Shown: in pieces, positions 4,126 to 56,791 of the stretch | Layout of the letters: every line of letters starts with the position of its first letter | Position numbering within the stretch: the first letter of the stretch is position 1 | NCBI RefSeq assembly: GCF_032555305.1 | Contig: NZ_JAWGOQ010000024.1 | Coordinates: forward strand, 11,033-75,032 | DNA length: 64,000 nt | DNA from: Enterococcus sp. | GTDB taxonomy: Bacteria; Bacillota; Bacilli; Lactobacillales; Enterococcaceae | Direction: 5' to 3' | Position numbers and translations under genes: made by a program | The notes under the pieces: generated by a model | What the model saw: only the letters and a program-made list of their open reading frames with translations | Databases searched by the model: none | Told to the model about the DNA's origin: nothing

Positions 4126-4610
4126 AGTTTTTCTTCCCGCTTTAGCGGGTTAGAAAAATGGTATGCGTGGTGAGAATAAAACTAACTTTTTCGCTTTTTG
4201 AAAAAGTTAATGCTTTAAAACGAATTAGCTGCCAGTTTTCTTAGCAGTTTGATATAGAACGAAATCTAAGTTGATATGTTCTGATGAAATAAGGCACGAA
4301 CTGTTTAGCGTAATCGTACGCGCAGTGAGAATCAGATTCATTTTTCATGGGTTTCGAAAAATGATTACTTTAATATGAGCTAGCTGCCAGTTCAACTTTT
4401 CTCAGCTCTCAAAGTTGGACTGGTAATTAAATGGTTGAAACACAGTATTGACACGTGATGTTTAGTTGGATGGTATGCGCGATGAAAATAAAACTAACTT
4501 TTTCGCTTTTTGAAAAAGTTAATCCTTTAAAACGAATTAGCTGCCAGTTTTGCTTCTCACAGCTTGATTTTTAAAGAGTCTTGGCTTAAAACCATAGCGT
4601 AATCGTATAT
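4126..4610 (+). repeat. Head-to-tail array of about 3.5 copies of a structured intergenic repeat
   Basis: Units 4126-4233, 4234-4388, 4389-4545 and partial 4546-4610, joined at TAGCTGCC|AGTT; 4158-4239 and 4470-4551 are nearly identical. Confidence 0.85.
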
Positions 4611-4789
4611 AGAACAGGATCCGAATCATGTTTTATTAAACCTTTTTTAAAGGTTCATTTTGTAACAAATATTTTTTTATGGTTGACAAAACCTTCAGCA
4701 GAATGGTATGTGTATTGAGATTGAAGTACGATTTTTTTGATTCATGGTTTTACGGGTATTTTTTTACCCGGAAGAAAGAGGGAATAGAT

Positions 4790-5900
4790 GTGGAAAATGC
4801 AGAAATACGAAATTTGTTAGACACGATGCAAGAGCAGGTCGTAAGCTTCAGGGGGTCTCTTTGACCTAGAGCAGTTAGAAGAAGACATCGCGGAGGCGGA
4901 AAATCAAATGACCGCTCCAGGTTTTTGGGATGATTCGGAAAAGGCGCAGGCATTGATCAATAGTAACAATGCAGCAAAGGATACATATGACCAGTTTCAA
5001 GCGATCGCAAATGAAACCGATGAATTGAATGTCATGTGGGAAATGCAGCAGGAAGAATATGACTATGAACTGCACAGTGAACTTGAAGAACGGTTAGGTC
5101 AATTGCAGGAAAAAGTTTCTGGCTTCGAACTGTCTCTTTTACTTGATGAACCTTACGATAAAAATAATGCGATCGTGGAATTGCATCCAGGTGCTGGCGG
5201 AACAGAATCTCAGGACTGGGGTTCGATGCTTTTGCGGATGTATACACGCTGGTCGGAGCAGCATGGATTTTCAGTTGAGACGATCGATTACCAATCAGGT
5301 GACGAGGCGGGTATCAAAAGTGTGACGCTAATGATCAAAGGAACGAATGCTTATGGCTACTTGAAGTCAGAAAAGGGTGTTCATCGTTTAGTGCGAATCT
5401 CACCTTTTGATTCAGCTAGCCGACGCCATACTTCTTTTTGTTCGGTTGAAGTGATGCCGGAATTAGATGAAAATATCGAAGTCGAGATCAATCCAGATGA
5501 TCTGAAGGTCGATGTTTATCGTGCTAGTGGTGCTGGCGGTCAGCATATCAACAAGACTTCATCAGCCGTTCGAATCACGCACCTACCGACCGGCACCGTT
5601 GTCGCCAGTCAAGCACAGCGTTCGCAATTCCATAACCGCGAAACGGCGATGCAGATGCTGAAGGCGAAGCTTTATCAATTAGAGATCGAGAAGAAGGAGC
5701 AGGAAGCTGCTGCATTACGTGGTGAACAAAAGGAAATCGGCTGGGGCTCGCAAATTCGTTCTTATGTATTTCATCCTTACTCGATGGTGAAGGATCATCG
5801 CACCGAACATGAGACAGGAAATGTACAGGCAGTAATGGACGGCGAATTGGATCCTTTCATTGACGCTTACTTGAAATGGCGATTAGCTCAAGAGGGTTAA
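4790..5900 (+). CDS. prfB: Peptide chain release factor 2, programmed +1 frameshift, join(4790..4861,4863..5900)
   Basis: GTG start after GAGGGA; AGGGGG-TCT-CTT-TGA-C slippery site at 4850-4865; SPF and GGQ motifs downstream. Confidence 0.97.
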
Positions 5901-5997
5901 GGCCAAAATGAAATCAAACTGTAAAGTAATGAAAGCCAGTTGCAATGTTGGCATGCTATAATAACAAAGAATTTAAGAGGATTTGGAGAGATAAAGC

Positions 5998-6687
5998 ATG
6001 ATTGAAATGCAGGATGTAACAAAAAAATATCCTAACAAGACAACTGCTGTACGTGGGATTTCGGTCCGTATCGATCAAGGTGAGTTCGTCTATGTCGTTG
6101 GCCCCTCTGGTAGTGGAAAATCTACCTTTATCAAGTTGATGTATCGTGAAGAAAAAGCAACCTCTGGAAAAGTATTAGATGTTGCCCGTCACGATTTATT
6201 AAAAATTAAAAATAAAGAAGTTCCTTATTTGCGTCGTGATGTCGGCGTCGTTTTCCAGGACTTCAAGCTACTGCCCCGCAAGACCGTTTATGAAAATGTT
6301 GCCTATGCAATGCAGGTTATTGGACGTAAACCGCGGGACATCAAAAAACGTGTTATGGAAGTGCTGGACCTTGTTGGGTTGAAGCATAAAGTCCGCGTGT
6401 TCCCAAGTGAACTATCTGGTGGGGAGCAACAACGGGTATCAATTGCACGCGCGATCGTGAATACCCCGAAAGTGTTGATCGCCGATGAACCGACAGGAAA
6501 TTTGGACCCAGATACTTCTTGGGAAATCATGCATCTATTAGAACGAATCAATAATCAAGGAACAACGATCGTCATGGCGACTCATAACAAAACGATCGTA
6601 GATACAATGCGTCATCGCTTGATCGCGATTGAAAATGGCTTGATCGTTCGGGATGAAGCGGAAGGAGAATACGAGTTTGATGATTAG
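5998..6687 (+). CDS. ftsE: Cell division ABC ATPase FtsE
   Basis: GPSGSGKST, LSGGEQQRVSIARAIVN, ADEPTGNLD; followed by ftsX. Confidence 0.95.
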   Translation: MIEMQDVTKKYPNKTTAVRGISVRIDQGEFVYVVGPSGSGKSTFIKLMYREEKATSGKVLDVARHDLLKIKNKEVPYLRRDVGVVFQDFKLLPRKTVYENVAYAMQVIGRKPRDIKKRVMEVLDLVGLKHKVRVFPSELSGGEQQRVSIARAIVNTPKVLIADEPTGNLDPDTSWEIMHLLERINNQGTTIVMATHNKTIVDTMRHRLIAIENGLIVRDEAEGEYEFDD

Positions 6688-7564
6688 AAATTTCTTCCGG
6701 CACTTGTTGGAAAGTATCAAGAGTGTCAAACGTAACGGCTGGATGACGTTAGCTTCAGTCAGCGCGGTAACGATCACCTTGACGATGGCAGGAATTTTCA
6801 TGGCAGTGATCATGAATGCGACGAAACTAGCTCAGGATGTTGAAGGCAATGTCGAGGTAACCGTCTTTGTTGATATCGGTACGAAGGAAAAGGATTTAAA
6901 AGAGTTGAAGACAGATCTGGAAGATATCAGCCATGTAGATAAGGTGACCTTTTCTAGTAAAGAAGAGCAGTTGAAAAAATTACAAAAACAAATGGGAGAT
7001 GCCTGGGACCTATTTGAAGGCGACAGCAACCCGCTTTATGATGTATATGTTGTAAAAGCAACAGACGCACAATATATTCGTCCAGTAACCCGAGAAGCAA
7101 GTCAATTACCAAATGTTTTCCGTGCCAATTATGGCGGAAATTCTGCTGACCGAATCATTCAAATGTCGAAGGTCGTACGGACTTGGGGCTTAGCAGCAGC
7201 TGCTCTATTAGTCTTTGTGGCAATCTTCTTGATTTCGAATACTATTCGGATCACGATCATTTCACGGAAAACCGAGATTCAAATCATGCGCTTAGTTGGT
7301 GCCAAGAATGGATATGTCCGTTGGCCATTCTTCCTTGAGGGTGGTTGGATCGGTTTGATTGGTTCAATCGTGCCGATTCTAGTCTTGACCTATGGCTACT
7401 CGCAAGTGTACGGATTGGCTGCACCGTATCTTTTACAGTCAAATCTAGAACTGCTGCGTCCGAACCAAATCGTTTGGATTTTGGATATCACGATGGCCGT
7501 TGGCGGTTACTTGATTGGTTCATTAGGATCGGTCATTTCAATGCGTCGCTTCTTAAAAATTTAA
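6680..7564 (+). CDS. ftsX: Cell division permease FtsX
   Basis: RNGWMTLAS..., ISNTIRITIISRKTEIQIMRLVGA...PFFLEG; start ATG 6680 overlaps the ftsE end. Confidence 0.95.
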   Translation: MIRNFFRHLLESIKSVKRNGWMTLASVSAVTITLTMAGIFMAVIMNATKLAQDVEGNVEVTVFVDIGTKEKDLKELKTDLEDISHVDKVTFSSKEEQLKKLQKQMGDAWDLFEGDSNPLYDVYVVKATDAQYIRPVTREASQLPNVFRANYGGNSADRIIQMSKVVRTWGLAAAALLVFVAIFLISNTIRITIISRKTEIQIMRLVGAKNGYVRWPFFLEGGWIGLIGSIVPILVLTYGYSQVYGLAAPYLLQSNLELLRPNQIVWILDITMAVGGYLIGSLGSVISMRRFLKI

Positions 7565-7569
7565 TAAAC

Positions 7570-7605
7570 AAAACTTCTTCGAAACAAATTCGGAGAAGTT
7601 TTTTT
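7570..7605 (+). terminator. Intrinsic terminator after ftsX
   Basis: AAAACTTCTTCGAA...TTCGGAGAAGTTTT plus T-run. Confidence 0.8.
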
Positions 7606-7636
7606 GTTCCTTAATAAAATCAGAAAAAGCTCTTCC

Positions 7637-7665
7637 TTGATTTTTTCTTGGAAAGGTTCTAAGAT
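7637..7665 (+). promoter_or_regulatory. Putative sigma-A promoter of the riboswitch-gdx transcript
   Basis: TTGATT-N17-TAAGAT just upstream of the riboswitch. Confidence 0.55.
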
Positions 7666-7671
7666 AGAAAT

Positions 7672-7745
7672 CAATTATATAACGCTACCGAGCAAGGGAG
7701 CCAATTTCGTTAGGTCATTGAAGAAATTGGACTCCCTTATTTTGT
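7672..7745 (+). ncRNA. Guanidine-IV (GGAM-1) riboswitch
   Basis: P1 GCT-ACCG-AGC; terminator-like P2 AAGGGAGCCAATTTC/GAAATTGGACTCCCTT whose loop carries TAGGTC...GAA (ACC/GGT kissing potential); upstream of a Gdx-type SMR gene. Confidence 0.8.
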
Positions 7746-7746
7746 C

Positions 7747-7900
7747 AGTTATGCTTTTTGCAGTCTATTTGGTTTGTGTCGAAGGGATCAATTTTTAACC
7801 AGTTAATAGGCAGGCGATTAGCATAATGATATGCGTAATGAAAATCGAACTCATTTTTCGTGTTTTTGGAAAAATGAATACCTTGAAATGAATTAGCGGT
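7747..7900 (+). repeat. Dispersed copy of the structured repeat
   Basis: AGTTATGCTTTTTGCAGT...TTAGCATAATGATATGCGTAATGAAAAT...TCATTTTTC-N9-GAAAAATGA...AATGAATTAGC. Confidence 0.8.
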
Positions 7901-7919
7901 GTGTTTAGGAGGAATTTTT

Positions 7920-8243
7920 ATGATGGCATGGGTATCTTTAGTCGTAGCAGGAGTGTTTGAAATGTTTTGGGCGACGATGATGAAGCTGAGTGAAGGCTTC
8001 AGTAAAATCAATTATTCACTATTAACGGTGATTGGAATGATCGCAAGTTTCTATTTTTTGGCAAAATCACTTCATTCGTTACCAATGAGTTTGGCGTATC
8101 CGATTTGGACAGGCATCGGAGCGGTAGGCTCAATTTTGATCGGAGTCATTTTCTTTAAAGATCATCTATCGTTATTGACCAGTTTTTTTGTCATACTTTT
8201 GGTCGCAGGAATTATCGGAATCAAGGTTACTAGCGGACATTAA
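7920..8243 (+). CDS. gdx: SMR family exporter, Gdx/SugE (guanidinium) subtype
   Basis: About 107 aa, 4 TM; AGVFEMFWA (G-E-W), ASF, AYPIWTGIG; SD AGGAGG. Confidence 0.8.
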   Translation: MMAWVSLVVAGVFEMFWATMMKLSEGFSKINYSLLTVIGMIASFYFLAKSLHSLPMSLAYPIWTGIGAVGSILIGVIFFKDHLSLLTSFFVILLVAGIIGIKVTSGH

Positions 8244-8292
8244 GCAGAAAGTAAGTTAAACTATTTTTAATATAAAATCCTGGAGGGAATCT

Positions 8293-8730
8293 ATGATCAA
8301 ATCAACGGATGAATTAACACCACAAGAATTAGTAACTATTTTACAGGCTCGCACAGCAGTTTTTGTTGTGGAGCAAAAATGTCCTTATCAAGAAGTCGAT
8401 GAGGCAGATCGTCAGGCGGTTCACGTTTGCATAGCGGAAAATGGAACATTGCAAGCTTATGCGCGTATTTTGGATGAAGAGGACGGGGTTCATTTTGGTC
8501 GAGTTTTAGTGGTGAAAGAGTACCGAGGACAGCAGTTAGGTCGAGAGATTGTAAGGAAGACATTAGGCGAGATTGAAGTCCGCTATCCCAATCGTCCAGT
8601 TATTATTTCAGCGCAAGCGCACCTAGCTGATTTCTATGGTTCATTTGGCTTTGAAAAAACTTCCGATGTTTATTTAGAGGATGAAATCCCTCACATTGAC
8701 ATGTTGTTGCAAAATGAAAAAAAACGCTAA
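8293..8730 (+). CDS. GNAT N-acetyltransferase, ElaA-like
   Basis: RTAVFVVEQKCPYQEVD, FGRVLV, SAQAHLADFYGSFGF, YLEDEIPHIDM. Confidence 0.85.
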   Translation: MIKSTDELTPQELVTILQARTAVFVVEQKCPYQEVDEADRQAVHVCIAENGTLQAYARILDEEDGVHFGRVLVVKEYRGQQLGREIVRKTLGEIEVRYPNRPVIISAQAHLADFYGSFGFEKTSDVYLEDEIPHIDMLLQNEKKR

Positions 8731-8790
8731 AGCACGTGGTTTACAATCAGCTTCTTCTCGGCTATTCTTTAGTAGAAGGAGTGTGGAAAC

Positions 8791-10239
8791 ATGTCTTTTG
8801 TGACAGAGCACTTGGGATTAGTGTTCCTGATTATTAATACGATTTTATCATTTATTATTGTTTTTCGAGAACGGAAGGATACGGTCAATACATGGGCTTG
8901 GTTGTTAGTCTTGACCTTCATTCCAGTTCTCGGCTTTATTTTATATGTCTTTTTTGGAAAGGGAATTTCGAAGGAACGGATCTTTGATTTGAAGATGCAG
9001 ACCAAAATCGGGATGAACGTGGAGGTCCAGCAGCAGCAGCGAGCATTGGCACGAGGCCTTTTTCCCAAGCCAACAACGAATCAAGTCGATCCGAGGCAGC
9101 TGATCTATATGCTGACGATGTTTGAGAGTTCTTTATATACGACCAATAATGAGGTTATTCTATACACTGATGGACGCGAAAAGTTCGACGCGCTGCTTGA
9201 GGATATCAAACAGGCAAAATACCACATCCATATGGAGTACTATATTTATCGTGCAGATGATCTGGGGCTTGAAGTAAGGGAAGCATTAGTAGCCGCAGCC
9301 TCTCGTGGAGTAAAAGTTCGACTGCTTTTAGACGCGTGGGGTTCTACCCAGGTCAATCGGCGTTTTCTCGCCCCACTGATCGAAGCAGGGGGAGAAGTGG
9401 ATTTCTTCTTCCCACTATTTTTACCGTATTTGAATCCGCGTATGAATTATCGCAATCATCGGAAAATCGTGGTGATCGATGGGGAGATCGGCTATACTGG
9501 CGGCTTCAATGTTGGGGATGAATACCTAGGATTAGTCGAAAAGTTCGGCTATTGGCGAGATAATCATTTGCGTATTCACGGTCATGCTGTTTACACGTTG
9601 CAGAACCGTTTTTTGATGGATTGGAATTCCCAGCAAAAACATGAACTGGTTTATCAACCGGATTATTTCCCTGAGATCGAATCAGAAGGGAAGCTGGCCT
9701 TGCAAATGGTCAGCAGCGGACCTGATAGTGAGCACGAGCAAATTAAATTGACCTACCTGAAAATGATCAATTTAGCCAAGAAAGAAATTCTGATTCAAAC
9801 GCCTTACTACATCCCAGACGCACCGATCCATGAAGCGTTGAAACTGGCATTATTATCAGGAGTCAAGGTTCGTATTCAAATTCCGAATAAACCCGATCAT
9901 ATGCTGGTTTATTGGGCGACCTATTCTTTTTCAGCTGAGCTGCTGGAATATGGAGCAATCATCGAGACCTACGAGAATGGTTTTATTCACGCAAAAACGA
10001 TGGTGATTGACGCTGGAATCGCTTCAGTGGGATCAGCCAATATCGATGTTCGTTCCTTCAAACTGGACTTTGAAGTGAATACGATCGTTTACGACGCGGC
10101 GTTTGCCGAGGAGTTGCGTGAAGAATTTTATAAAGACTCCATGAAATCAGAACTTTTGACTCAAGAAAAATACGATCAGCGCGGGATTGTTATTAAGTTC
10201 AAAGAAGGAATTGCACGTTTGATTTCTCCTCTCCTGTAA
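8791..10239 (+). CDS. cls: Cardiolipin synthase
   Basis: Two N-terminal TMs; two HKD motifs (RNHRKIVVIDG, HAKTMVID). Confidence 0.95.
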   Translation: MSFVTEHLGLVFLIINTILSFIIVFRERKDTVNTWAWLLVLTFIPVLGFILYVFFGKGISKERIFDLKMQTKIGMNVEVQQQQRALARGLFPKPTTNQVDPRQLIYMLTMFESSLYTTNNEVILYTDGREKFDALLEDIKQAKYHIHMEYYIYRADDLGLEVREALVAAASRGVKVRLLLDAWGSTQVNRRFLAPLIEAGGEVDFFFPLFLPYLNPRMNYRNHRKIVVIDGEIGYTGGFNVGDEYLGLVEKFGYWRDNHLRIHGHAVYTLQNRFLMDWNSQQKHELVYQPDYFPEIESEGKLALQMVSSGPDSEHEQIKLTYLKMINLAKKEILIQTPYYIPDAPIHEALKLALLSGVKVRIQIPNKPDHMLVYWATYSFSAELLEYGAIIETYENGFIHAKTMVIDAGIASVGSANIDVRSFKLDFEVNTIVYDAAFAEELREEFYKDSMKSELLTQEKYDQRGIVIKFKEGIARLISPLL

Positions 10240-10451
10240 AAATCATTTGCGCTTTCATGGTTTGATAGTATAAAATGAACTAGCTTGTTTAGTAAGTCAA
10301 ACATTTAGAAAATGAATAAGATGTCAGTTGCGAGTCCCAATTTCATTTTTAAGACGTTAGTGGGATCATAGGCAACGACAGTCAGAAAAGTTGATACAAT
10401 TTTTTCATTTTACTAGAGTTGGCTCAATTAATTGAAATAAGGAGCTTTTTC

Positions 10452-11297
10452 ATGAAGAAATGGTTAATTCCTCTATTAGGGACGCTTTTACTTTTGTCCG
10501 GTTGTTCAAAATGGATCGACCGTGGCGAGTCAATTACAGCAGTCGGATCATCTGCTCTGCAGCCGCTTGTTGAAACTGTTGCAGAAGAATATCAAAGTAA
10601 GAATCCTGGCAGATTTATCAATGTCCAGGGTGGCGGAAGCGGGACTGGCTTGAGTCAGGTACAATCGGGAGCAGTTGAGATCGGTAATTCAGATTTGTTT
10701 GCAGAAGAAAAAAATGGGATCGACGCGAAGAAGTTAGTCGATCACAAGGTTGCAGTTGTCGGCATCACTCCGATCGTTAATAAGGGCGTTGGGGTAACGA
10801 ATATTTCATTGGAGAATCTGCGGAAGATTTTTCTTGGTGAGATCAAAAATTGGAAAGATTTGGGAGGTAAGGATCAAGATATCGTCATTTTGAACCGAGC
10901 CAGCGGTAGCGGCACACGCTCGACCTTTGAGCAGTGGGTCTTGGACGGTAAGACAGCGGTTCGCGCGCAAGAGCAGGATTCAAGCGGAATGGTGCGTCAG
11001 ATCGTCGCCGATACACCCGGAGCAATTAGTTATACGGCCTTCTCTTATGTAACGAAAGAAGTACAAACACTGAATATCGATAATATTGAGCCAACAGATG
11101 AGAATGTGACTACCAATCGCTGGAAAATTTGGGCCTATGAGCATATGTATACGAAGGGGCAGCCAACTGAATTGGTGAAGGATTTTCTCGATTATATGCT
11201 TTCAAAAGAAGTTCAAGGAAAAGTTGTGCCTCAACTTGGGTATATTCCTATTTCTGATATGAAGGTCGAACGTGATTGGCAGGGAAATGTAATATAA
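10452..11297 (+). CDS. pstS: Phosphate ABC transporter substrate-binding lipoprotein
   Basis: Lipobox LSGC; GSSALQP, QGGGSGTG, RASGSGTR; SD AAGGAG before ATG 10452. Confidence 0.92.
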   Translation: MKKWLIPLLGTLLLLSGCSKWIDRGESITAVGSSALQPLVETVAEEYQSKNPGRFINVQGGGSGTGLSQVQSGAVEIGNSDLFAEEKNGIDAKKLVDHKVAVVGITPIVNKGVGVTNISLENLRKIFLGEIKNWKDLGGKDQDIVILNRASGSGTRSTFEQWVLDGKTAVRAQEQDSSGMVRQIVADTPGAISYTAFSYVTKEVQTLNIDNIEPTDENVTTNRWKIWAYEHMYTKGQPTELVKDFLDYMLSKEVQGKVVPQLGYIPISDMKVERDWQGNVI

Positions 11298-11308
11298 TAA
11301 TTTTTTGT

Positions 11309-11339
11309 GGACATGGATGAATTTCCATGTCCCTTTTTA
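11309..11339 (+). terminator. Intrinsic terminator after pstS
   Basis: GGACATGGA-TGAATT-TCCATGTCC then CTTTTT. Confidence 0.75.
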
Positions 11340-11376
11340 TATAATTAGCTAATATAGCAATAGGAGGATTAATTCG

Positions 11377-12153
11377 ATGTACTATCCGATTCAATTGCCT
11401 TTTCTTTTGAATGATGATTTTACGCGAGTGATGAGCTATCGCGAAAAAATAATTTCTGACTGCAGTGAGTTTGTCTTGTGTTTTTGGTCGATACAGTCGA
11501 AAACGCAAGAACAGGCATGTGTTAAGAATGTGATCATTGCGGATGGCTGCATTGATCTGATTGTGGATTTCGATCAAAGAATGATCTTTTTTACCGGAAA
11601 TCAGCAGACTGATTTTGATTATGAAATCCAAACCCCGGCACATTTTTTCGGAGCTCGAATGATGCCGGGGGCTTTCCATCAGTTGACAGGTTTACCGGCA
11701 GGAGCAGCCATGGATCAGTTCATCTTACTTTCAGATGTCTTTAACGACTTGGACCAAGAAAATTTATTTGCGGGAACATTTGAAGCAGGGCAAGAAATTT
11801 TTCAAAACTATGTGGTTGGAAAATTTGAAGGGAAGCAGCCCAACGATTTCACTCGACTCTTTCCGCGATTGTCGGAGAAAATTCCGCAAACAACAAAAGA
11901 ATTATACGAGCAGCTCTACTTCAGTCCGAGACAATGTCAGCGAATCTTTGCGAAAAATTTTGGTTTGACACCCAAAATGGTACTGAGTATTCTGCGCTTT
12001 CAAAAATGCTTGCAGATCTTAACTTCAGAACAAGCGCGACCAGCTGATATTTTAGCAGTTACAAATTACTACGATCAACCGCATTTCAATAAGGATTTTA
12101 AACATCATCTGGGAATTACGCCGCTGGAGTTGCTGGCTCGCTATAAAAATTGA
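11377..12153 (+). CDS. AraC-type regulator (DUF6597-like N-domain plus HTH)
   Basis: IIADGCIDLI N-terminal motif; SPRQCQRIF...GLTPK...RFQ...YYDQPHFNKDFK...GITP. Confidence 0.85.
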   Translation: MYYPIQLPFLLNDDFTRVMSYREKIISDCSEFVLCFWSIQSKTQEQACVKNVIIADGCIDLIVDFDQRMIFFTGNQQTDFDYEIQTPAHFFGARMMPGAFHQLTGLPAGAAMDQFILLSDVFNDLDQENLFAGTFEAGQEIFQNYVVGKFEGKQPNDFTRLFPRLSEKIPQTTKELYEQLYFSPRQCQRIFAKNFGLTPKMVLSILRFQKCLQILTSEQARPADILAVTNYYDQPHFNKDFKHHLGITPLELLARYKN

Positions 12154-12222
12154 CGCATTTTTACAATAACTAGCTGTCAGGTCTTGCTAGAATAAGACTA
12201 TAAATTAAAGGAGCTGGTTAAA

Positions 12223-12615
12223 ATGTATAAAAGTATCACAACGAATTTAATGGTGGCAAGCGTGGACGCATCAGTGAAGTTTTATCAAGAAATTCTTGGG
12301 TTAGAAGTGGTGGCTTCCGTTCCAGCAAAAGACCAAACGTTACAATTTGCGATTCTTGGGAAAGAGGCTATGACATTGATGCTGCAGGAAAAAAGCAATT
12401 TAAGTGAAGAGTATCCGATCTTGGCTGCCGAAAAGATTCAGCCGTCAATTACGTTGTATATTAAGGTGGAGAATTTTGAAAAATTTTATGCAGATGTTAA
12501 AAGTAGTTATCCGATTTATACTGAACCACATACCACATTTTATGGTGCGCAAGAATTCGCTATTACAGACCCAGATGGCTATGTATTGACCTTCACTGAA
12601 TATAAGGAAGGATGA
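12223..12615 (+). CDS. VOC family (glyoxalase/bleomycin-resistance-like) protein
   Basis: NLMVASVDASVKFYQEILG...TFYGAQEFAITDPDGYVLTF. Confidence 0.85.
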   Translation: MYKSITTNLMVASVDASVKFYQEILGLEVVASVPAKDQTLQFAILGKEAMTLMLQEKSNLSEEYPILAAEKIQPSITLYIKVENFEKFYADVKSSYPIYTEPHTTFYGAQEFAITDPDGYVLTFTEYKEG

Positions 12616-12621
12616 TTAGTG

Positions 12622-12850: not shown

Positions 12851-12853
12851 TTT

Positions 12854-15747: not shown

Positions 15748-15764
15748 GAGACGGGGGAAATTGA

Positions 15765-21093: not shown

Positions 21094-21144
21094 TGCGATG
21101 AAAACAAAACATTTTTCACAGGTTTGGAAAAAATAAATACTTTA
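21094..21144 (+). repeat. Degenerate partial copy of the structured repeat
   Basis: TGCGATGAAAACAAAACATTTTTC-ACAGGTTTG-GAAAAAATAAATACTTTA resembles the second half of the unit. Confidence 0.5.
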
Positions 21145-38953: not shown

Positions 38954-39273
38954 CTCATTAGATTCTACATTTTAATTATCTGTTGAATTATAGCAAAGTT
39001 TTACTTCTATTAACAAGCGGATGCAATGTTTGTAATCAAAACTTCAACTAATTGTTAAGTAAAACAAAACAAGCATTATTATATTGTGAGTGATCATTTT
39101 AGAATATGTCCGATTCTAATGGGCTAGAACTTGGAATAAATCTGACGAATGGCTTTTATTTCCGTGTTTTTTCAGTTAATATGGGAAAGTATAAATCATT
39201 TAGGAATGATATGCGTAATGAGCATATGCCTAACATTTTGTTAGCGCATCAAGAATAATTAGGAGGAAAAAAC

Positions 39274-45137: not shown

Positions 45138-45174
45138 AAGGACAATCGTCGCAGGATGATTGCCCTTCTTTTTT
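45138..45174 (+). terminator. Terminator after the yneF-like gene
   Basis: AAGGACAATCGTC-GCAG-GATGATTGCCCTT then CTTTTTT. Confidence 0.7.
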
Positions 45175-45177
45175 GCC

Positions 45178-45338
45178 TGTTCTGCTTTTCGCAGTATGAA
45201 AGGACGAAGTTTGTTAGTGATCAAAAGAAATGCTTGAAGTGTGATATCTAGCAGAAAGATATACGTACGAAAACACGCTCATTTTCCCTGATTTTGGGAA
45301 AATGAATTTCTTTATTACTTAATTAGTGAGTTAGCTGT
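45178..45338 (+). repeat. Dispersed copy of the structured repeat
   Basis: GTTCTGCTTTTCGCAGT...TAGCAGAAAGATATACGTACGAAAAC...TCATTTTCCC-N7-GGGAAAATGA...TGAGTTAGCTG. Confidence 0.75.
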
Positions 45339-48279: not shown

Positions 48280-48297
48280 AGTAAATGAGGGCTATAA

Positions 48298-48585: not shown

Positions 48586-48712
48586 AAGTGAGCTTTTCCA
48601 AAATTTTTGGAAAAGCTCTTTTTTTTTACAGAAATTTTGTTATACTGATAGCTAACTATTAGAATACGATGAAATTAGTTTTAATATGAATGTAATTTAA
48701 TGGAGGCGGAAT

Positions 48713-50002
48713 ATGGAAAAAGCAGTCAAGGTAGGTCTATTAGGTTTAGGTGTAGTCGGTACCGGTGTCCTGGAAATTTTGGCAGATCACAAAGATAAAA
48801 TCGAAAAAAGTATTGGCGGCCCCTTGGTTGTGACGAAAGCCTTGATCCGGCCACAGGAAGATAAACAAGCAGTCGCAGAAAAGTATGGTCTGGAGTTAGT
48901 TACCGAACTGGACGCGATTTTAAATGATCCGGAAATCTCTATTGTTGTAGAAGTAATGGGGCGGATCGAACCAGCGAAAACCTTCATCAAAGAAGCCTTG
49001 ATGGCAGGAAAAAATGTTGTCACTGCGAATAAGGATCTGTTAGCGCAGCACGGCACTGAGTTAGTCAATCTGGCACGGGAGCAGCAGCGTAATTTGTATT
49101 ATGAAGCGAGTGTTGCCGGTGGTATCCCGATCTTGCGGACGATCGCCAATAGTTTAGCAGCGGACGATATTACTGAAGTTTTGGGGATCGTCAATGGGAC
49201 GACCAACTATATGCTGACCAAAATGGTCCAAGAGCATCGGACTTATGATGAAACATTGAAGGAAGCCCAAGAGCTTGGCTTTGCGGAAAGTGATCCGACC
49301 AATGATGTGGACGGAATCGATGCCGCATACAAGATGGTCATCTTGAGTAAATTTGCTTTTGGGATGTCTATCACGATGGACCAAGTCAAGATCAAAGGAA
49401 TTCGCGGATTGGCGGCGGAAGATGTGACGATCGCTGATCAACTAGGCTATACAGTGAAGCTGATCGGTTCAACAATCAAAAAAGACGACACGATCTCTGT
49501 TGAAGTCGGACCAGTCTTAGTCCCTTCTGAGCATCCGCTTGCTTCGATCCATAATGAAATGAATGCTGTTTTTGTTAAGAGCTCAGGGATTGGTGAATCA
49601 ATGTATTATGGCCCAGGAGCTGGCGCACGTCCAACAGCGACCAGTATCGTGGCGGACCTAATGACGATTGTTAACAAGATGAAGAAAAATACGGTTGGTC
49701 ATCGTTTTACCGGTTATACGCAACCGACAAAAATCACTTCGTCGGATGAAAACATCAGCAAATACTTCTTATCACTAGAAATGCCGGATGAACCAGGTCA
49801 ATTCTTAAAGTTGGCTGAGATCATGACTGAAACGCAAGTGGGATTTGAACAGGTCGTTCAAGAAAAAGGCGATGGTGAAAGTGCCAGAGTCGTGCTGATC
49901 ACGCATGAAACGAGCGAAACGAAAATTGTGCAGATCCAAGAGAAAATCAAGGAAAAAACGAGTTATCAACTATTGTCATTGATGAAAGTTATGGGGGAAT
50001 AA
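48713..50002 (+). CDS. hom: Homoserine dehydrogenase
   Basis: [39 protein letters not shown]-terminal ACT domain. Confidence 0.97.
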
Positions 50003-50004
50003 AC

Positions 50005-51063
50005 ATGTACGAAGGTCTATTAAAGCAATATAAAGAGTATTTACCAATCACTGATAAGACACCACAAATCGCATTGGCTGAAGGAAACACACCATTGATT
50101 CCTTTGAAGAATTTATCAAAAGAATTGGGCATTACACTTTATGGAAAATATGAAGGCTTAAATCCAACTGGTTCGTTTAAGGACCGCGGGATGGTAATGG
50201 CTGTCGCAAAAGCTGTAGAAGACGGCGCGAAGGCGATTATTTGTGCATCGACTGGAAATACAAGTGCCGCTGCTGCTGCTTATGCAACACGCGCAGGTAT
50301 CAAGGCTTATGTTGTAATCCCTGATGGAAGGATTGCGATGGGCAAGTTGGCGCAAGCAATTGCTTATGGCGCGGACATCATTTCAATCCCGGGTAACTTC
50401 GATGAAGCGTTGAAAGCAGTTCGTGATATTGCAGAGACGGAAGCAGTTGCTTTAGTAAACTCTGTTAATCCATATCGTTTAGAAGGACAAAAAACAGCAG
50501 CTTTTGAAATCTGTGAACAATTAGAAAAAGCACCAGATGTATTGGCGATTCCTGTCGGTAATGCCGGCAATATTTCGGCCTACTGGAAAGGCTTCAAAGA
50601 ATGGCATGAGAAAAAGGGAACGGAATTACCGCGAATGCATGGCTTCGAGGCAGAAGGTGCGGCAGCGATCGTTCAAGGTAAAGTGATTGAAGAACCAGAA
50701 ACAGTGGCAACAGCTATCCGGATCGGAAACCCAGCAAGCTGGAAATTAGCGGAAGCAGCACGTGATGAGTCTAACGGTTATATCGATTCCGTGACAGATG
50801 AAGAAATTTTGAACGCCTATCGCAAAGTCGCTTCTCAAGAAGGAGTCTTTGTGGAGCCTGGTTCGGCTGCTTCTTTAGCCGGTGTGATTCAGCATGTGAA
50901 GAATGGACGGATCAAACCAGGGGAAACAGTCGTCACTGTCTTTACCGGTAACGGCTTGAAGGATCCTGATACAGCGATCAACGAAACAGATATTAAAATC
51001 AATAAGATGAGTGATTTGGAGGATATGCGCCGACACTTACGTGAAGGAGTGGCTTCCCTATGA
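50005..51063 (+). CDS. thrC: Threonine synthase
   Basis: [37 protein letters not shown]. Confidence 0.97.
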
Positions 51064-51923
51064 AAATTCGCGTCCCAGCAACCAGCGCCAACCTAGGCCC
51101 CGGCTTTGATTCGTGTGGGATCGCGTTGTCTCAGTATTTGACGATCGATATCGGTCCGGAAACCAAGAAATGGCAGATCAAGCATCAATTGGGCAGTGAT
51201 ATTCCGTCGGATGAAAAGAATCTATTGATTCAAACAGCGCTAGATTTGGCTCCTAATTTAACTCCACATCAGCTGACGATGACATCAGACATCCCGATTG
51301 CTCGCGGTTTGGGAAGCAGCTCTTCAGTTGTCGTAGCAGGGATCGAATTAGCCAATCGTTTAGGCAGCTTAGGAATGACCCCACAGCAAAAAGTAGATTA
51401 TGCAACCAAGATTGAAGGACATCCTGATAATGTGGCTCCAGCGATCTGTGGAGATTTTGTCGTGGCAAGCTACAATAACAATGAAGTGAACTTCGTGAAG
51501 CATATGTTTCCTGATTGTGACGTGATTGCCTTTATTCCGAATCATGAGCTACTGACATCAGAAAGCCGTGCTGTTTTACCGAAAGAATTGTCTTATCGCG
51601 ATGCAGTGACAGCCAGTTCGATCGGCAATGTGATGATCGCAGCTGTTTTAAATGGTAACTTACCATTAGCAGGAAAAATGATGGAAAAAGATATCTTGCA
51701 CGAGAGTCATCGTCAGCATCTTGTTCCTCACCTGAAAAAGATTCGTGAATTTTGCAGGGCTTATGGCGGCTATGGCAGCTTTTTAAGTGGGGCTGGACCG
51801 ACCGTCTTAGTATTAAGTCCATCTGAAAATACGGAAAAATTAGTCACAGCCATGAAAGCATATGATCATGAAGCATTGATTGATGTACTTTCTGTTGAAA
51901 AAGAAGGCGTGCAAATATTTTAA
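51060..51923 (+). CDS. thrB: Homoserine kinase
   Basis: [34 protein letters not shown]. Confidence 0.97.
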
Positions 51924-52166
51924 TTGCGTTGAAGAGAAGAGTACAACTGATCGGACTTGACAGAGAGCTTCGGTAATTGAGAAGAAGCAGCAGCGATTCG
52001 TTGGAAGATGGCCTTGGAGCAATTGTCCTTACGACACGGGAATGCCCGTTACAGCAGTTCGCAGCAATGCGACAAAAGTTCAGTCTTGTAAGAGGCTGTT
52101 AAACTAAGGTGGTACCACGGCACTCCCGTCCTTTCAGATATGAAAAGACAGGAGTGTCCTTTTTTT
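51924..52166 (+). ncRNA. T-box riboswitch, Met specifier
   Basis: Stem I with AGTA, AGAGA and TTGAGA motifs; specifier ATG at 52008-52010; T-box AAGGTGGTACCACGG at 52106-52120; terminator GCACTCC...GGAGTGT plus T-run. Confidence 0.93.
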
Positions 52167-52224
52167 ATCATACTGAGACAATAGACTATTTACCATATTG
52201 AAAAAAATATTAGGAGGAACGATC

Positions 52225-53496
52225 ATGGAATTTGAAACAAAATGTTTACATGCAGGTTATGAACCGGAAAACGGAGGTCCACGGGTATTGCCGATCGTCC
52301 AAAGTACGACTTATGCCTATGACTCTACAGATGAGATCGGAAAGCTTTTTGACTTGGAGGCGGCAGGCTATTTTTACACACGGCTAGCGAATCCAACGAC
52401 AGGTGCGGTAGAAGAGAAGATCGCTGCACTTGAAGGCGGTGTGGGAGCCTTATGTACCTCATCAGGTCAGGCAGCGACCTTCTATGCGGTATTGAACATC
52501 CTGGAGGCAGGCGATCATTTGATTTCTTCCAGCTATATTTATGGCGGAACCTATAATTTGTTTGCGCATACTCTGAGAAAAATGGGTATTGAAGTAACCT
52601 TTGTCGATCAAGATGCATCAAAAGAGGAATTGTTGAAAGCGGCGAAACCAAATACGAAAGCGATTTTTGGGGAAACGATCGCTAATCCAGCAGTGAAGGT
52701 CTTAGACCAAGAAAAATTTGCGGCAGTGGCAAAAGAATTGGATATTCCGTTTCTAATTGATAATACCTTTGCGACGCCATATTTCTGTCGCCCATTCGAA
52801 TTTGGCGCCGACATCGTTATTCATAGTACGACGAAGTATCTGGATGGACATGCAGTGCAAACAGGTGGCGTCATCGTTGATGGAGGAAGCTTTAATTGGA
52901 ATAATGGAAAATTCCCACAGCTTTCGGAGCCTGATGAAACCTACCACGGCATTGTTTATACTGAAAAATTTGGACAGGCTGCTTATATTACCAAGGCACG
53001 AGTTCAGTTGATGCGTGATCTAGGTGCGACGCCTTCACCGCAAAATTCATTCCTGCTTAATCTCGGTATGGAGACATTGCCAGTTCGGATGGATCGTCAT
53101 TATGAGAATGCAATGACAGTAGCCAAATATCTAATGGAACAAAAGGCGATTGCAAAAGTTAATTATCCTGGTTTGGAAAGTAATGCCGATTACGCTTTGA
53201 CGCAAAAATATGTACCTAATGGCTTGTGCGGTGTTATTTCAGTCGAATTTGCAGAGGGTAAGGAAGTGGCTGCAAAATGGTTGGATGCACTAGAACTAGT
53301 TTCACTGGAAGTCCACGTAGCGGATATTCGTACCTGTGCGCTGCATCCCGCAACTTCGACTCACCGTCAATTGACTGATGAAGAGCTGCGCCAGGCGGGA
53401 ATCTCGCCTGGTCTGGTCCGCATATCCTGCGGGATCGAAAACGTGAAGGATATTCTTGCTGACCTGCAACAGGCCTTTGACAAATTGGAGGGATAA
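52225..53496 (+). CDS. metY: O-acetylhomoserine aminocarboxypropyltransferase (sulfhydrylase)
   Basis: YTRLANPT, SSGQAA, ETIANP, DNTFATP, HSTTKY, HPATSTHRQL. Confidence 0.9.
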   Translation: MEFETKCLHAGYEPENGGPRVLPIVQSTTYAYDSTDEIGKLFDLEAAGYFYTRLANPTTGAVEEKIAALEGGVGALCTSSGQAATFYAVLNILEAGDHLISSSYIYGGTYNLFAHTLRKMGIEVTFVDQDASKEELLKAAKPNTKAIFGETIANPAVKVLDQEKFAAVAKELDIPFLIDNTFATPYFCRPFEFGADIVIHSTTKYLDGHAVQTGGVIVDGGSFNWNNGKFPQLSEPDETYHGIVYTEKFGQAAYITKARVQLMRDLGATPSPQNSFLLNLGMETLPVRMDRHYENAMTVAKYLMEQKAIAKVNYPGLESNADYALTQKYVPNGLCGVISVEFAEGKEVAAKWLDALELVSLEVHVADIRTCALHPATSTHRQLTDEELRQAGISPGLVRISCGIENVKDILADLQQAFDKLEG

Positions 53497-53499
53497 CTC

Positions 53500-54429
53500 A
53501 TGCCGATTCGTTTAGAGCCTGATTTTCCAGCGAAGTCAGTTTTGGAATCAGAGGATATTTTCGCCATCGATAACTCGAGAGCGGAGCATCAAGACATTCG
53601 TCCACTGAAGCTGTTAATTTTAAATTTGATGCCGAATAAGATTGACACGGAGATTCATCTGTTGCGCCTGATCAGCCAAAGCCCGTTGCAGATTGATGTT
53701 GATTTTTTGAAAGTAGCTAGCCATGAACATAAGCACACGAGCAAGAATCATTTGGATAAGTTCTATTTGGACTTTTCTCAGGTGAAGGAAACCTGTTATG
53801 ACGGATTGATCATTACTGGTGCACCTGTGGAGCAAATGGCGTTCGAGGAAGTCGATTACTGGCCTGAACTAGTTGAGATTATGGAGTGGAGCCAGTCATC
53901 AGTGACCTCAGTCGTGCATATTTGCTGGGGCGCGCAAGCTGGACTCTATTATCATTTTGGCGTGGATAAGGTTCCATTCAAGGAAAAATTATTTGGAATC
54001 TACAAGCAGGATATCGAACATCACTTCCGTTTGTTCAGAGGTTTTGATGACCGATTTTGGATGCCACAGTCACGTTATACCGGCATCAATGAAGAACAGG
54101 TACGTGATGCGAAAATCAAAGTGATCGCGAAGGACGAGGCAGAGCGTTCCGCTATTTTGATTTCAGAGGATGAGCACGATGTCTTTTTGATGGGGCATTT
54201 TGAATATGCGACCGATACCTTGGAAAAGGAATATCTGCGTGATCACGAGCGAGGATTGGACACAGCGAAGCCCGCAAATTATTACGAGGATGGTAAGATC
54301 TTTAATTATTGGCGAGCGCAGGCCCATCTGTTTTATCACAACTGGTTGAATGACGTATATCAAATAACACCCTATCGCTTAGAAAGAATAAGGGAATTGC
54401 AAAAAGAAAGAAAGCTGAGATCGATTTGA
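53500..54429 (+). CDS. metA: Homoserine O-acyltransferase (MetA family, probably acetyl-specific)
   Basis: QDIRPL, NLMPNK, TGAPVE (Glu at the specificity position), ICWGAQ, GHFEY. Confidence 0.92.
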   Translation: MPIRLEPDFPAKSVLESEDIFAIDNSRAEHQDIRPLKLLILNLMPNKIDTEIHLLRLISQSPLQIDVDFLKVASHEHKHTSKNHLDKFYLDFSQVKETCYDGLIITGAPVEQMAFEEVDYWPELVEIMEWSQSSVTSVVHICWGAQAGLYYHFGVDKVPFKEKLFGIYKQDIEHHFRLFRGFDDRFWMPQSRYTGINEEQVRDAKIKVIAKDEAERSAILISEDEHDVFLMGHFEYATDTLEKEYLRDHERGLDTAKPANYYEDGKIFNYWRAQAHLFYHNWLNDVYQITPYRLERIRELQKERKLRSI

Positions 54430-54442
54430 TCTCAGCTTTCTT
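54408..54442. terminator. Bidirectional hairpin overlapping the metA and yqfL-like 3' ends
   Basis: AAGAAAGCTGAGATC-GATTT-GATCTCAGCTTTCTT, perfect 15 bp inverted repeat. Confidence 0.7.
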
Positions 54443-55286
54443 CTTCCATAAAGTAATAGCTATGGTCTTCTAAATCCAAAGCACTCATAATCATTGCCGC
54501 TGTTTCTTCAATCGAAAGTGTTGCGACATTAATGATCTCACAGCCTAATTTTTGATACAGGTCATTGGCAAATTTCAACTCTGCTTGAATCTTTTCACGA
54601 TCAGAATAGGCAGTTTCAGGATTCAATCCATATGCCCGCATCCGCTCTTTTCGGATACCGATCAATACTTCCGGATCATTGGTCAATCCGACGATTTTTT
54701 TCGGGTCGATCTCAAACAGCTGTTTAGGAATATGTGCTTGCGGGATCAATGGCAAGTTCGCAACCTTCAAATTTTTGTTTGCTAAGTATAAGCTAAGCGG
54801 CGTTTTTGAGGTTCTTGAAACACCAAGCAGTACTACGTCAGCCTCTAGGAAACCACGTGGATCTTTTCCATCATCATACTTAACCGCAAATTCCATTGCT
54901 TTGATTCGTTTGAAATAATTTTCATTTAAGTGGTGTAATGCCCCACGTTCTCCGGTTGGCTCCATGTGGGCACGTTGTCCGATCTCACTAACGACCGGAT
55001 TCAACAAATCCATCGTGAAGAGGTCCTCATTTTCACAAAACTCTTTCGCAATTTTCGATAATTTTGGATCAATCAATGTATAGATGATCATGCCATTTTC
55101 GGCTTTGGCGTCGTTTAAGGCTTTCATCAATAATTCTTCCGTGTGCACGAAGGTACGGCGGAAGAGACAGAATTCTACAGTAGGATACTGCGCCATAGAG
55201 GCTTGTGCCAGCTTAGAAGCAGTTTCTCCAGCAGAATCGGAGATGATGAAAATAGTGACTAACTCGTTTTGTTTTTCGCTATCCAT
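54432..55286 (-). CDS. Pyruvate, phosphate/water dikinase regulatory protein (DUF299/YqfL)
   Basis: ISDSAGETA, YFKRIKAMEFAVKYDDG, GVSRTSKTPLSLYLA, SIEETA. Confidence 0.93.
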   Translation of the reverse strand: MDSEKQNELVTIFIISDSAGETASKLAQASMAQYPTVEFCLFRRTFVHTEELLMKALNDAKAENGMIIYTLIDPKLSKIAKEFCENEDLFTMDLLNPVVSEIGQRAHMEPTGERGALHHLNENYFKRIKAMEFAVKYDDGKDPRGFLEADVVLLGVSRTSKTPLSLYLANKNLKVANLPLIPQAHIPKQLFEIDPKKIVGLTNDPEVLIGIRKERMRAYGLNPETAYSDREKIQAELKFANDLYQKLGCEIINVATLSIEETAAMIMSALDLEDHSYYFMEEES

Positions 55287-55372
55287 AAAGAAAATCTCCC
55301 TTGCAATCAGTAATAATTTATTATACCATACTGTTTATTCGGAATCATTACACTTTGAAATGAGGAAATAAC

Positions 55373-55810
55373 ATGACTCAGACGACTTTATTAGAAAAGG
55401 CTTTGGCAAAGGTAAAAGAAAATGGCTTCAAGTATACGAAAAAACGTGAGACTTTATTAGACTATTTGATCAAATCCAATCGTTATGTTTCAGCACGCGA
55501 AGTTTATGATCACTTGAATAATCAATTTCCCGGGCTGAGCTATGATACCGTATATCGTAATCTTAGAGAGTTTTGTGAAATCGGTCTGATCGAAGATACC
55601 GAATTACAGGGGGAGATGAAATTTCGCTTTAGCTGTAGCGAAAATTTCGAGCATCACCATCACTTTATCTGTACGGTTTGTGGCACGACAAAGGAGATCC
55701 ATATGTGTCCAATGAACTTTTTTAAAGAACAACTAGATGGCTGTGAAATCGAAGGACACCGCTTTGAATTGTATGGGCGATGTGAAAAATGTCAAAAAGT
55801 TAATGGATAA
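55373..55810 (+). CDS. zur: Fur family regulator, Zur-like
   Basis: LSYDTVYRNL, HHHHFICTVCG, CPM, GRCEKC. Confidence 0.8.
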   Translation: MTQTTLLEKALAKVKENGFKYTKKRETLLDYLIKSNRYVSAREVYDHLNNQFPGLSYDTVYRNLREFCEIGLIEDTELQGEMKFRFSCSENFEHHHHFICTVCGTTKEIHMCPMNFFKEQLDGCEIEGHRFELYGRCEKCQKVNG

Positions 55811-55948
55811 ATTAAGAATTAAAATTCTTCAGTACCTTGACTCAAAATAGCCCATTAGATATAATGACTTATGGACGGTCTTGTTTATTGAAAGCACATT
55901 TCAATAACAAAAACGGTTACATTTCAAGCCCGGAGGGAGGGAATTTAC

Positions 55949-56125
55949 ATGTCAAAAACAGTGGTTCGTAAAAATGAATCTCTTGACGATGCTCTTCGTC
56001 GCTTCAAACGTTCCGTTTCAAAAGCAGGGACTCTGCAAGAATCTCGCAAACGTGAATTTTATGAAAAACCAAGCGTGAAACGTAAGAAAAAATCAGAAGC
56101 AGCTAGAAAACGTAAGAAATTCTAG
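55949..56125 (+). CDS. rpsU: 30S ribosomal protein S21 (58 aa, absent from ORF track)
   Basis: [69 protein letters not shown]. Confidence 0.98.
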
Positions 56126-56146
56126 TCTGTGAACGGAGTGATTCTA

Positions 56147-56593
56147 TTGTCACTACTTACTACCTTGAATGAAGACATGAAGCAAGCGATGCGAGCAAAA
56201 GATAAAGAGACTTTGCAAGTGATCCGGATGCTTAAAGCTTCGATTCAAAATGAGCAGATCAAAAAAGGTCAGGACTTGAATGACGAAGAAGAATTGACTG
56301 TCTTATCTCGCGAGATGAAACAGCGACGCGATTCTCTAACTGAGTTTGAAAAAGCTGATCGCACCGATTTGGCTGATAAGGTCAAAAAGGAAATCGTAAT
56401 TGTTGAAAAATACTTGCCGGCTCAGCTTTCCGAAGATGAGATCCGCGCGATCGTTACAGATGCAATTGCAACAACAGGAGCGACTTCACCAAAAGAATTT
56501 GGTAAAGTGATGGGTGCAGTGATGCCGAAAGTCAAAGGCAAAGCCGATGGCAATCAAGTCAACGCAATCGTCAAGGAGCTTCTGAACAAATAA
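56147..56593 (+). CDS. GatB/YqeY domain protein
   Basis: DMKQAMRAKDK, KQRRDS, YLPAQLSE, GKVMG...KGKADG; TTG start inferred. Confidence 0.93.
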   Translation: MSLLTTLNEDMKQAMRAKDKETLQVIRMLKASIQNEQIKKGQDLNDEEELTVLSREMKQRRDSLTEFEKADRTDLADKVKKEIVIVEKYLPAQLSEDEIRAIVTDAIATTGATSPKEFGKVMGAVMPKVKGKADGNQVNAIVKELLNK

Positions 56594-56604
56594 GCAATAT
56601 TGAA

Positions 56605-56634
56605 GGCCGAGAGAAATTTCTCTCGGCTTTTTTT
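56605..56634 (+). terminator. Terminator after the yqeY-like gene
   Basis: GGCCGAGAGAA-AT-TTCTCTCGGCT plus T-run. Confidence 0.85.
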
Positions 56635-56637
56635 GCG

Positions 56638-56791
56638 AGTTATGCTTTTTGCAGTTTGTCGAGTTTGCGCTTTTGTTACCAACTTTTACAATATAAATGG
56701 ACAAGCAGTTTAGCAGAATCGTATGCGTACGAAAATAGAATCATTTTTCCCTCTCTTGGAAAAATGAACTCATTTAAATGAGCTAGCTGCC
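56638..56791 (+). repeat. Dispersed copy of the structured repeat
   Basis: AGTTATGCTTTTTGCAGT (identical to 7747-7764)...TTTAGCAGAATCGTATGCGTACGAAAAT...TCATTTTTCC-N7-GGAAAAATGA...AATGAGCTAGCTGCC. Confidence 0.85.

Follow-up and report, generated by a model that had tools for sequence, protein, structure and literature searches.

The window analysed here, a 64,000-nt stretch of contig G000:C24 from an Enterococcus sp. genome (G000; 4.72 Mb, 40% GC), carries copies of a short, non-coding intergenic repeat. These copies belong to a real, apparently undescribed family that works like the EFAR repeats of Enterococcus faecalis and like non-autonomous HUH elements, and that includes an unusual lineage directed to Shine-Dalgarno sites. 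A mobile element accounts for the family better than a stand-alone functional RNA, which is less likely, and we tentatively propose that the units may be moved as folded single-stranded DNA (ssDNA) by a HUH transposase (IS200-like Y1 or IS91-like Y2) acting in trans.

The repeat forms a genome-wide family

A profile of the 3' half of the repeat gave 192 matches at E<=1e-3 in G000 and none in the reversed genome, indicating that the repeat is not a product of chance. Merging these matches with those of full-length profiles resulted in 171 loci covering 31,232 bp. Of the 192 matches, 143 were retained as complete units (both ends present, expected spacing, and at least 4 of 7 pairs of stem A, described below); 102 of these are long (~155 nt) and 41 are short (~105 nt). 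Six near-complete copies had been reported in the window by a first-pass annotation made from the sequence alone, and all six are found where that annotation placed them, with covariance model (CM) E-values of 2.6e-25 to 2.6e-9 for copies that are all in or near the training data. The annotation began each copy at AGTT, but the true 5' end lies 4 nt further left (4122, 4230, 4385, 7743, 45174 and 56634). Among its fragments, the one near 39200 was recovered (39170-39264, E 4e-4), but the one at 21094 is not significant (E 0.59).

All copies in the window lie on the + strand, as had been noted; however, this reflects the co-orientation of the genes, and genome-wide the repeat is found on the forward strand 75 times and on the reverse strand 70 times. 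Relative to genes called by a crude open reading frame (ORF) rule, 114 loci lie in sense between two co-oriented genes and 4 lie antisense, against a background of 498 and 633; the remaining loci lie between divergent or convergent genes (44) or have no neighbouring gene (9). The leading-sense strand carries 133 of 159 loci, compared to 3010 of 3919 genes (p 0.044; 12 loci had no strand call).

A 17-nt diagnostic pattern occurs at least 10 times in 19 of 24 congeners and in 7 of 109 other Enterococcaceae (at most 3 matches in the control), carriage being common in the congeners and patchy across the rest of the family. Domain 1 of the repeat was found alone, joined to different 3' parts, in two other families of the order and in 4 of 7 genomes of family f3, and the domain-1 hairpin is therefore a module common to several repeats. 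In family f3 (loci L288-L290, L294 and L295), this hairpin lies within a larger repeat that is accompanied by rpsI-like attachment-site remnants. On Lactococcus plasmids (L196; L197:4001-4110), a short T-type unit is carried between IS6 copies along with a P-type ATPase gene and its leader, and units are present at this ATPase locus in G000 and G035 as well. The window has no Rfam match at the gathering score, with matches at chance-level E-values only, and the phage collection contains no match to the repeat. A pattern scan of wider genome contigs returned 92 chance-like stretches, with none named Enterococcus among the 80 listed, in a set from which near relatives may have been excluded.

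The units fold into two covarying domains

Units begin with TG[CT][CG]AGT. Domain 1 is formed by TGYSA-G-TNNNNCT paired with AGNNNNA-TSRTA, a 12-bp stem (stem A) with one bulged G, and position 2 of this stem is a G.T pair in 125 of 143 units. The domain-1 loop carries a GC-TTYA-GC hairpin in short units, and consists of TTTCGCAG plus ~55 unstructured bases in long units. One unpaired T links domain 1 to domain 2. Two basal pairs at the foot of domain 2 close on the last bases of the unit; above a small internal loop follow three pairs, an invariant GA opposite GA and one further pair, and a large internal loop separates these from stem B. The pairs quoted for stems A and B in the first-pass annotation are present as written, but stem A is longer than was described and domain 2 has more covarying pairs. 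The insert had also been called hairpin-rich; this applies to the short form only, as the long inserts have a mean fold z of -0.31, with neither hairpins nor covariation inside any part of the set (102 inserts), and 89 of the 102 loops are 66-69 nt long. An alternative pairing of the TTTCGCAG motif with the end junction was rejected, since no covariation was found.

Among 18 short copies, 91.7% of cells are paired and 17 of 32 pairs are changed on both sides, a result obtained in 0 of 500 shuffles, although this control can be beaten when the sequences are related. The pairs on either side of the tandem GA form in 104/113, 53/77 and 91/113 units, compared to 79.6, 31.7 and 59.5 in permutations, with 30 of the 143 units dropped for missing anchors. 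Because the first selection of units itself used pairing, a held-out test was performed with 103 distinct copies from other genomes and metagenomes, chosen by motif alone without a pairing filter. Pairing at six positions of stem A was present in 96-103 of these 103 copies, and around the tandem GA in 95/103, 72/97 and 88/103 (0/2000 permutations for each position). The foot bases of domain 2 also co-vary with the 3' end: GC with GC, AC with GG, and GTC with GAC. Taken together, the covariation in the short and the held-out copies bears out the earlier proposal that a single-strand fold is under selection.

Terminal inverted repeats are absent, and the 5' end pairs with an internal segment rather than with the 3' end. 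The predicted fold consists of two adjacent stem domains that would place the first and last base side by side, and when folded as circles, 29 of 41 short units adopt a rod with both ends adjacent. The tandem GA and the G.T pair are present on the sense strand only; however, the simple folding energy of the unit at 4122 does not favour the sense strand and cannot separate RNA from ssDNA. A kink-turn was considered for the tandem GA and rejected, because the flanking pair covaries without a 3-nt bulge.

Three lineages differ in their 3' ends and targets

The units fall into three lineages, T, R and N, distinguished by 3' end and target. The T units, whose terminal bases are TAGC, sit behind terminator T-runs: a predicted hairpin plus T-run lies directly upstream of 62 of 73 loci with a T-rich left flank, compared to 361 of 1067 matched T-rich sites (p 4e-18) and 32 of 471 random intergenic sites. 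R units, which make up ~40% of loci, start after AGGA and end in AGGA, with the insertion point at AGGA^G of Shine-Dalgarno sites (the caret marks the bond), and the site is rebuilt. An open frame follows 3-12 nt on at 66 of 68 loci ending in an AGGAG-like site, compared to 59-75% of intergenic AGGAG sites. Of the held-out R units, 70 of 76 lie behind AGGA; of the held-out T units (n=27), 16 lie behind a terminator and 6 behind another T unit. Both lineages are also present in other genera. Terminator-targeted spread, as first suggested, is therefore an apt but incomplete description, as R units target Shine-Dalgarno sites and N units target copies of the family itself.

N units end in GAC and have GTC as the internal partner. 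An N unit is found inside the loop of a short T unit, which in turn lies inside the stem A arm of an R unit, and such three-layer composites occur four times in G000 and once in G035. At four loci the N junctions read GCTT (or G/GTT) before the unit and TAGC or CAGC of the host hairpin loop after it, with nothing repeated; the base after the unit is C in one case and T in the others, so the N boundaries are fixed and nothing is duplicated. No target duplication was found at N and nested T junctions; R insertions repeat AGGA, which is also the unit's own end at tandem junctions. With neither terminal inverted repeats nor duplications at N and T junctions, the units lack the classical features of DDE-type miniature inverted-repeat transposable elements.

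These junctions could in principle be produced by a conservative recombinase (IS110/IS1111-type or integron-like tyrosine) that joins the folded end junction to a short-core target, AGGA for R and T or TG for T. R units have AGGA in common with the target on both sides, the last T units (n=70) are followed by T in 56 cases and by G in 50, and bulged bases in the otherwise paired junction recall attC sites; IS110 genes are present in 13 of 25 congeners. However, the T, R and N junctions have no common core, an N unit and nested T units are followed by C, and no internal segment covaries with the target apart from the terminal pairing, nor are there target-matching guides like those of IS110/IS1111 bridge or seek RNAs. 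As G000 also has no IS110 and the non-coding ends of IS110 elements show no homology to the repeat, we regard a recombinase as quite unlikely. In G031 (L101:2150-2420), an IS110-type element is apparently inserted in stem B of an R-type tandem unit.

Empty sites and arrays reveal mobility

The gyrB-gyrA junction is empty in G005 and G001 (TAGTGAGGA^GGATC) and is filled with a full R unit at the same bond in G000 and G006 (TGAGGA[TG...TAGGA]GGATC); G002 has a slightly altered R unit there, and the copy in G016 is decayed. With 100/100 support on a prfB-ftsEX tree of 11 rows, G005 and G016 are sisters, and a clean empty site in one and a decayed copy in the other therefore indicate either precise loss or repeated insertion at the same junction. 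T sites are likewise empty in some of G005, G016, G006, G001 and G002, where diverged spacers prevent the junctions from being fixed, and the terminator hairpin is intact at filled T sites. The empty alleles at gyrB-gyrA and at T sites support the mobility that the first-pass annotation had proposed.

In the contigs of run X2, which are ~97% identical to G000, one T array has one more unit and one R array two fewer, indicating that arrays change by whole units within the species. Dispersed units have a median identity of 65% (5939 pairs) and tandem units 91% (32 pairs), so the family is old and the arrays are young. R arrays have a sharp end at the Shine-Dalgarno site (39/40), and the 4-42-nt 5'-truncated remnants upstream of them are more similar to the adjacent unit than to others (33 arrays; score 12.9 vs 6.9 permuted, maximum 8.0 in 300). 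T arrays have a sharp start at the terminator (64/68) and weaker remnants downstream (3.8 vs 3.0). This polarity would fit repeated insertion at a regenerated target followed by decay, and rolling-circle copying with overshoot would give it as well.

If the repeat were instead an RNA module with a cis-regulatory or stabilising role, dispersed by ordinary recombination and maintained by host selection because it affects the adjacent gene, it would be expected to retain structure while its sequence drifts, as the dispersed units do, and the constrained length of the long insert and the many copies in leaders are consistent with such a role. However, orthologous sites are empty, filled or decayed at random among congeners, the neighbouring genes are functionally unrelated, copies nest within each other, and whole units are gained and lost within the species; we consider this explanation very unlikely.

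Movement as single-stranded DNA is the favoured reading

Transposition of folded ssDNA by a HUH enzyme is favoured because the units lack inverted repeats and duplications, their bulged hairpins are specific to one strand, empty alleles are clean and the leading-sense strand is weakly over-represented, and because HUH elements of the genus use sites like those of T units: the left junction lies behind a hairpin and T-run in 15 of 15 IS200-type and 8 of 9 IS91-like elements. The units have fixed ends (5' TG; 3' AGC, AGGA or GAC), with cargo nested in the domain-1 loop. The two domains would stack via the 1-nt linker so that both ends meet, the enzyme would read this end junction, and the unit would exit and re-enter as a circle, inserting 3' of a short target, which would be AGGA for R units and ..TT for T and N units. 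The AGGA end of an R unit would restore the split site, so that the insertion is tolerated before essential genes such as gyrA. Each insertion would recreate the target at one end, which would account for the polarity of the arrays. RNA polymerase pauses at terminators and start sites, where it could expose the sense strand. At the right ends of IS200/IS605 elements a guide pairs with the cleavage site, and the domain-2 foot bases that change with the 3' end recall this pairing by analogy.

Several observations weigh against a HUH transposase. An IS608-type left end is expected to have a linker and guide, but domain 1 begins at base 1 with neither before it, and the TAGC end of T units differs from their ..TT target. 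Plain ssDNA recognition does not explain the preference for Shine-Dalgarno sites beyond their sequence without selection or coupling to transcription, and the tandem GA and G.T pairs fit RNA equally well. The strand excess is weak, and arrays and loci are not independent. Y1 transposases occur in 92 of the 134 Enterococcaceae genomes without any apparent connection to carriage of the repeat, and are absent from the rich carriers G001, G013, G036, G015, G035 and G195; Y2 is present in just 4 of 25 congeners. The ends of the fetched IS200, IS91-like and IS110 elements do not match the repeat models (best CM E 0.046-1.6), the Y1 comparison consisting of CM and hidden Markov model (HMM) scans of ~30 Y1 loci of the genus. 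Finally, no autonomous copy, with the 5' arm and domain 2 around an ORF, was found among the matches listed for G000 or among 91 distinct metagenome copies, 78 of which have a normal arm.

The choice of transcript landmarks would also be compatible with an RNA-mediated route, in which the unit would be released from host transcripts, perhaps as a circular RNA of rod-like shape, and a reverse transcriptase (RT) acting in trans would then copy it back. Terminator ends and ribosome-binding sites are transcript features chosen beyond sequence expectation, the loci lie overwhelmingly in sense between co-oriented genes (114 vs 4), the tandem GA and the frequent G.U pair are typical of RNA, the truncated remnants of R arrays resemble the adjacent unit, and a group IIC intron lies behind a terminator in G000. 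However, the carriers G002, G004 and G015 have no RT, no ribozyme or intron match was found in Rfam, CM R1 does not match the group IIC intron locus, and 105 nt is much too short for a group II ribozyme. In addition, T arrays are truncated at the opposite end, and the clean empty sister allele is more easily produced by DNA excision. An RNA route is thus unlikely in our view.

As the first-pass annotation had stated, no mobilising gene is encoded in the window. G000 has no IS110 and no Y2, but has three IS200-type Y1 genes, one group IIC intron and one retron-like RT; RT genes are found in 18 of 25 congeners. None of Y1, Y2, IS110 and RT is present in all rich carriers, and G001, G013, G015 and G035 have neither Y1 nor Y2. 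The left end of IS200c resembles a short unit by eye, but the resemblance is not significant (11.2 bits, E 1.6). Three kinds of IS200-type element (L032, L059-L083) all lie behind terminators and insert behind each other's right ends, and the IS91-like Y2 element (L391-L400 in G005, G009, G016 and G036; ~435 aa) has a terminator-like hairpin at its own end. Similar spacers of congeners hold further unrelated modular repeats (the pgk-tpiA spacer in L373, L374 and L376; also L004 and L393), and one such congener spacer repeat starts like the IS91-like left end and adjoins a copy of that element. The retron-like RT (L035:1225-3535; 350 aa) has neighbouring ORFs of 109 and 228 aa and may be part of a defence locus.

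Comparison with known systems

The nearest described kind of element is Efa-1/EFAR of E. faecalis, reported as 163 bp, 65 copies and a double hairpin (Cozzuto 2008, PMC2267715; also PMC3733652). Like EFAR, the repeat is intergenic, ~160 nt long, built of two adjacent stem-loops, modular with nested parts, and associated with terminators. Judged by sequence it works like EFAR but is a separate family, which answers in the negative the question of relationship raised by the first-pass annotation: the three HMMs of the repeat and CM R1 gave nothing better than E 0.09 on 29 EFAR loci and G174, and an EFAR HMM matched one separate locus in G000 (G000:C5:20203-20322, a single EFAR-like copy) and none of the repeat's copies. 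One EFAR module has the same 22-nt hairpin top, CTT-NNN-GC-TTTA-GC-NN-TTAG (E 0.61). G174, the sole genome of 134 with the Efa-1 motif, has no match to the 17-nt pattern. EFAR ends in its own terminator-like hairpin, unlike the repeat, and its insertion reportedly deletes much of the target stem-loop, whereas T units leave the terminator hairpin intact. We know of no partner enzyme for EFAR. The consulted passages on EFAR do not describe a Shine-Dalgarno lineage.

Derivatives of IS200/IS605 and the REP/BIME/REPIN elements with RAYT have neither terminal inverted repeats nor target duplications, and have bulged hairpins and T-rich targets. The repeat resembles them in lacking both kinds of repetition and in its strand-specific imperfect bulged hairpins, insertion 3' of T-rich targets, and tandem insertion. 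It differs in that its ends are not homologous to those of local IS200 elements, no flanked transposase was found, and the hairpin starts at base 1; a Shine-Dalgarno target for such elements was not found in literature searches. Like IS91 (Y2, rolling circle), the repeat has one precise and one ragged end and forms multimers, and the end of IS91 equals its target tetranucleotide, as is the case for R units. However, its ends have no similarity to the end sequences (oriIS/terIS) of the IS91-like element, whose enzyme is confined to the few congeners noted above.

BOX and SPRITE of Streptococcus pneumoniae are likewise small, structured, modular or ~105-nt intergenic repeats of parasitic appearance, as far as the consulted parts of PMC3049150 and PMC3184786 describe them. 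According to the former, convergent gene pairs are where they are enriched, and terminal repeats and duplications are features of BOX, whereas the repeat lies in sense between co-oriented genes; it is set apart from BOX and SPRITE by placement and by these descriptions. A search of 19 family f3 genomes with CM R1 gave no match. Group IIC introns also lie in sense directly behind intrinsic terminators, as in the single example in G000, but the repeat has no intron domains or ORF, is a fraction of their size, and shows no visible splicing signal. That intron (L034; G000:C30, ~56900-58780) encodes a 445-aa RT and has a 5' end that is apparently GTTTG rather than the usual GTGYG. Literature searches, in which subscription journals were thinly covered, returned neither this repeat family nor any miniature element reported to rebuild Shine-Dalgarno sites.

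Copies in the window

The copies in the window are listed in Table 1. The composite upstream of the phosphate-binding-protein-like gene (E 6e-5 for 10329-10424) and the remnant at the right edge had escaped the first-pass annotation. A full R unit begins 4 nt past the window (G000:C24, ~75036-75190), with its TAGGA^G end before a start codon. The secA terminator hairpin is kept in the closest congeners, and remnants of the unit 5' end lie behind it in L002-L010, L013 and L014; in L011, L012 and L015-L019 there is no such remnant behind the hairpin. A leader at 7683-7742, upstream of an SMR/SugE-like gene, is conserved in congeners and has a terminator at its end, with the 7743 copy directly behind. 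By its context, this leader is a candidate guanidine-IV-type riboswitch (PMC7736828, in the part available), without an Rfam match.

Table 1. Copies of the repeat in the window and the secA terminator adjoining the first array
Position	Strand	Feature	Basis
4091..4121	+	Predicted intrinsic terminator of secA (hairpin and T-run), left target of the array	Sequence; secA by Pfam
4122..4229	+	T-type short unit with a GC-TTTA-GC hairpin in domain 1, followed by domain 2 and a TAGC end	CM, 113.5 bits
4230..4384	+	T-type long unit 2, stem A partly broken	Sequence, CM
4385..4541	+	T-type long unit 3	Sequence, CM
4542..4640	+	Decayed distal unit with recognisable 5' arm; 3' limit approximate	Sequence
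7743..7897	+	T-type long unit following the terminator at the end of a conserved leader; an SMR-family gene lies downstream	Sequence, CM, congener comparison
10322..10444 (approximate)	+	Decayed composite that opens as an R-type unit, encloses a T-short unit and ends in AAGGAG ahead of a phosphate-binding-protein-like gene	
39170..39264	+	Decayed copy, with its end at the TAGGAGG Shine-Dalgarno site of tyrS	E 4e-4
45174..45335	+	T-type long unit that follows a predicted terminator and precedes a thioredoxin-reductase-like gene	Sequence, CM
56634..56787	+	T-type long unit behind the predicted terminator of a YqeY-like gene	Sequence, CM
63935..64000	+	5'-truncated R-type remnant	E 0.1

Implications

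One full picture of the family, which as a whole we hold to be unlikely, is that of rod-folding mobile units of 105-155 nt in which a few terminal bases, with their internal partners, re-program the target, so that one lineage reads terminator ends, another recognises and restores Shine-Dalgarno sites, and the third reads the hairpin loop of the family itself. The units would insert where the polymerase pauses and exposes a strand and would tolerate cargo in the loop, and their enzyme would not be tied to the described elements. If true, Lactobacillales would possess a new insertion system that leaves no scar and preserves expression. Landing in, and rebuilding, the ribosome-binding site of ~65 genes per genome would be a 'safe-harbour' strategy for which literature searches found no match among bacterial miniature elements. 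The three lineages offer natural pairs of end and target for tracing the enzyme behind the EFAR-like modular repeats of Lactobacillales, and a loop that tolerates cargo suggests that a compact insertion tool might be built on the unit. Across the enterococcal clade, 5' leaders and leader-terminator junctions have been rewritten by these units, which may tune the expression of the genes concerned.

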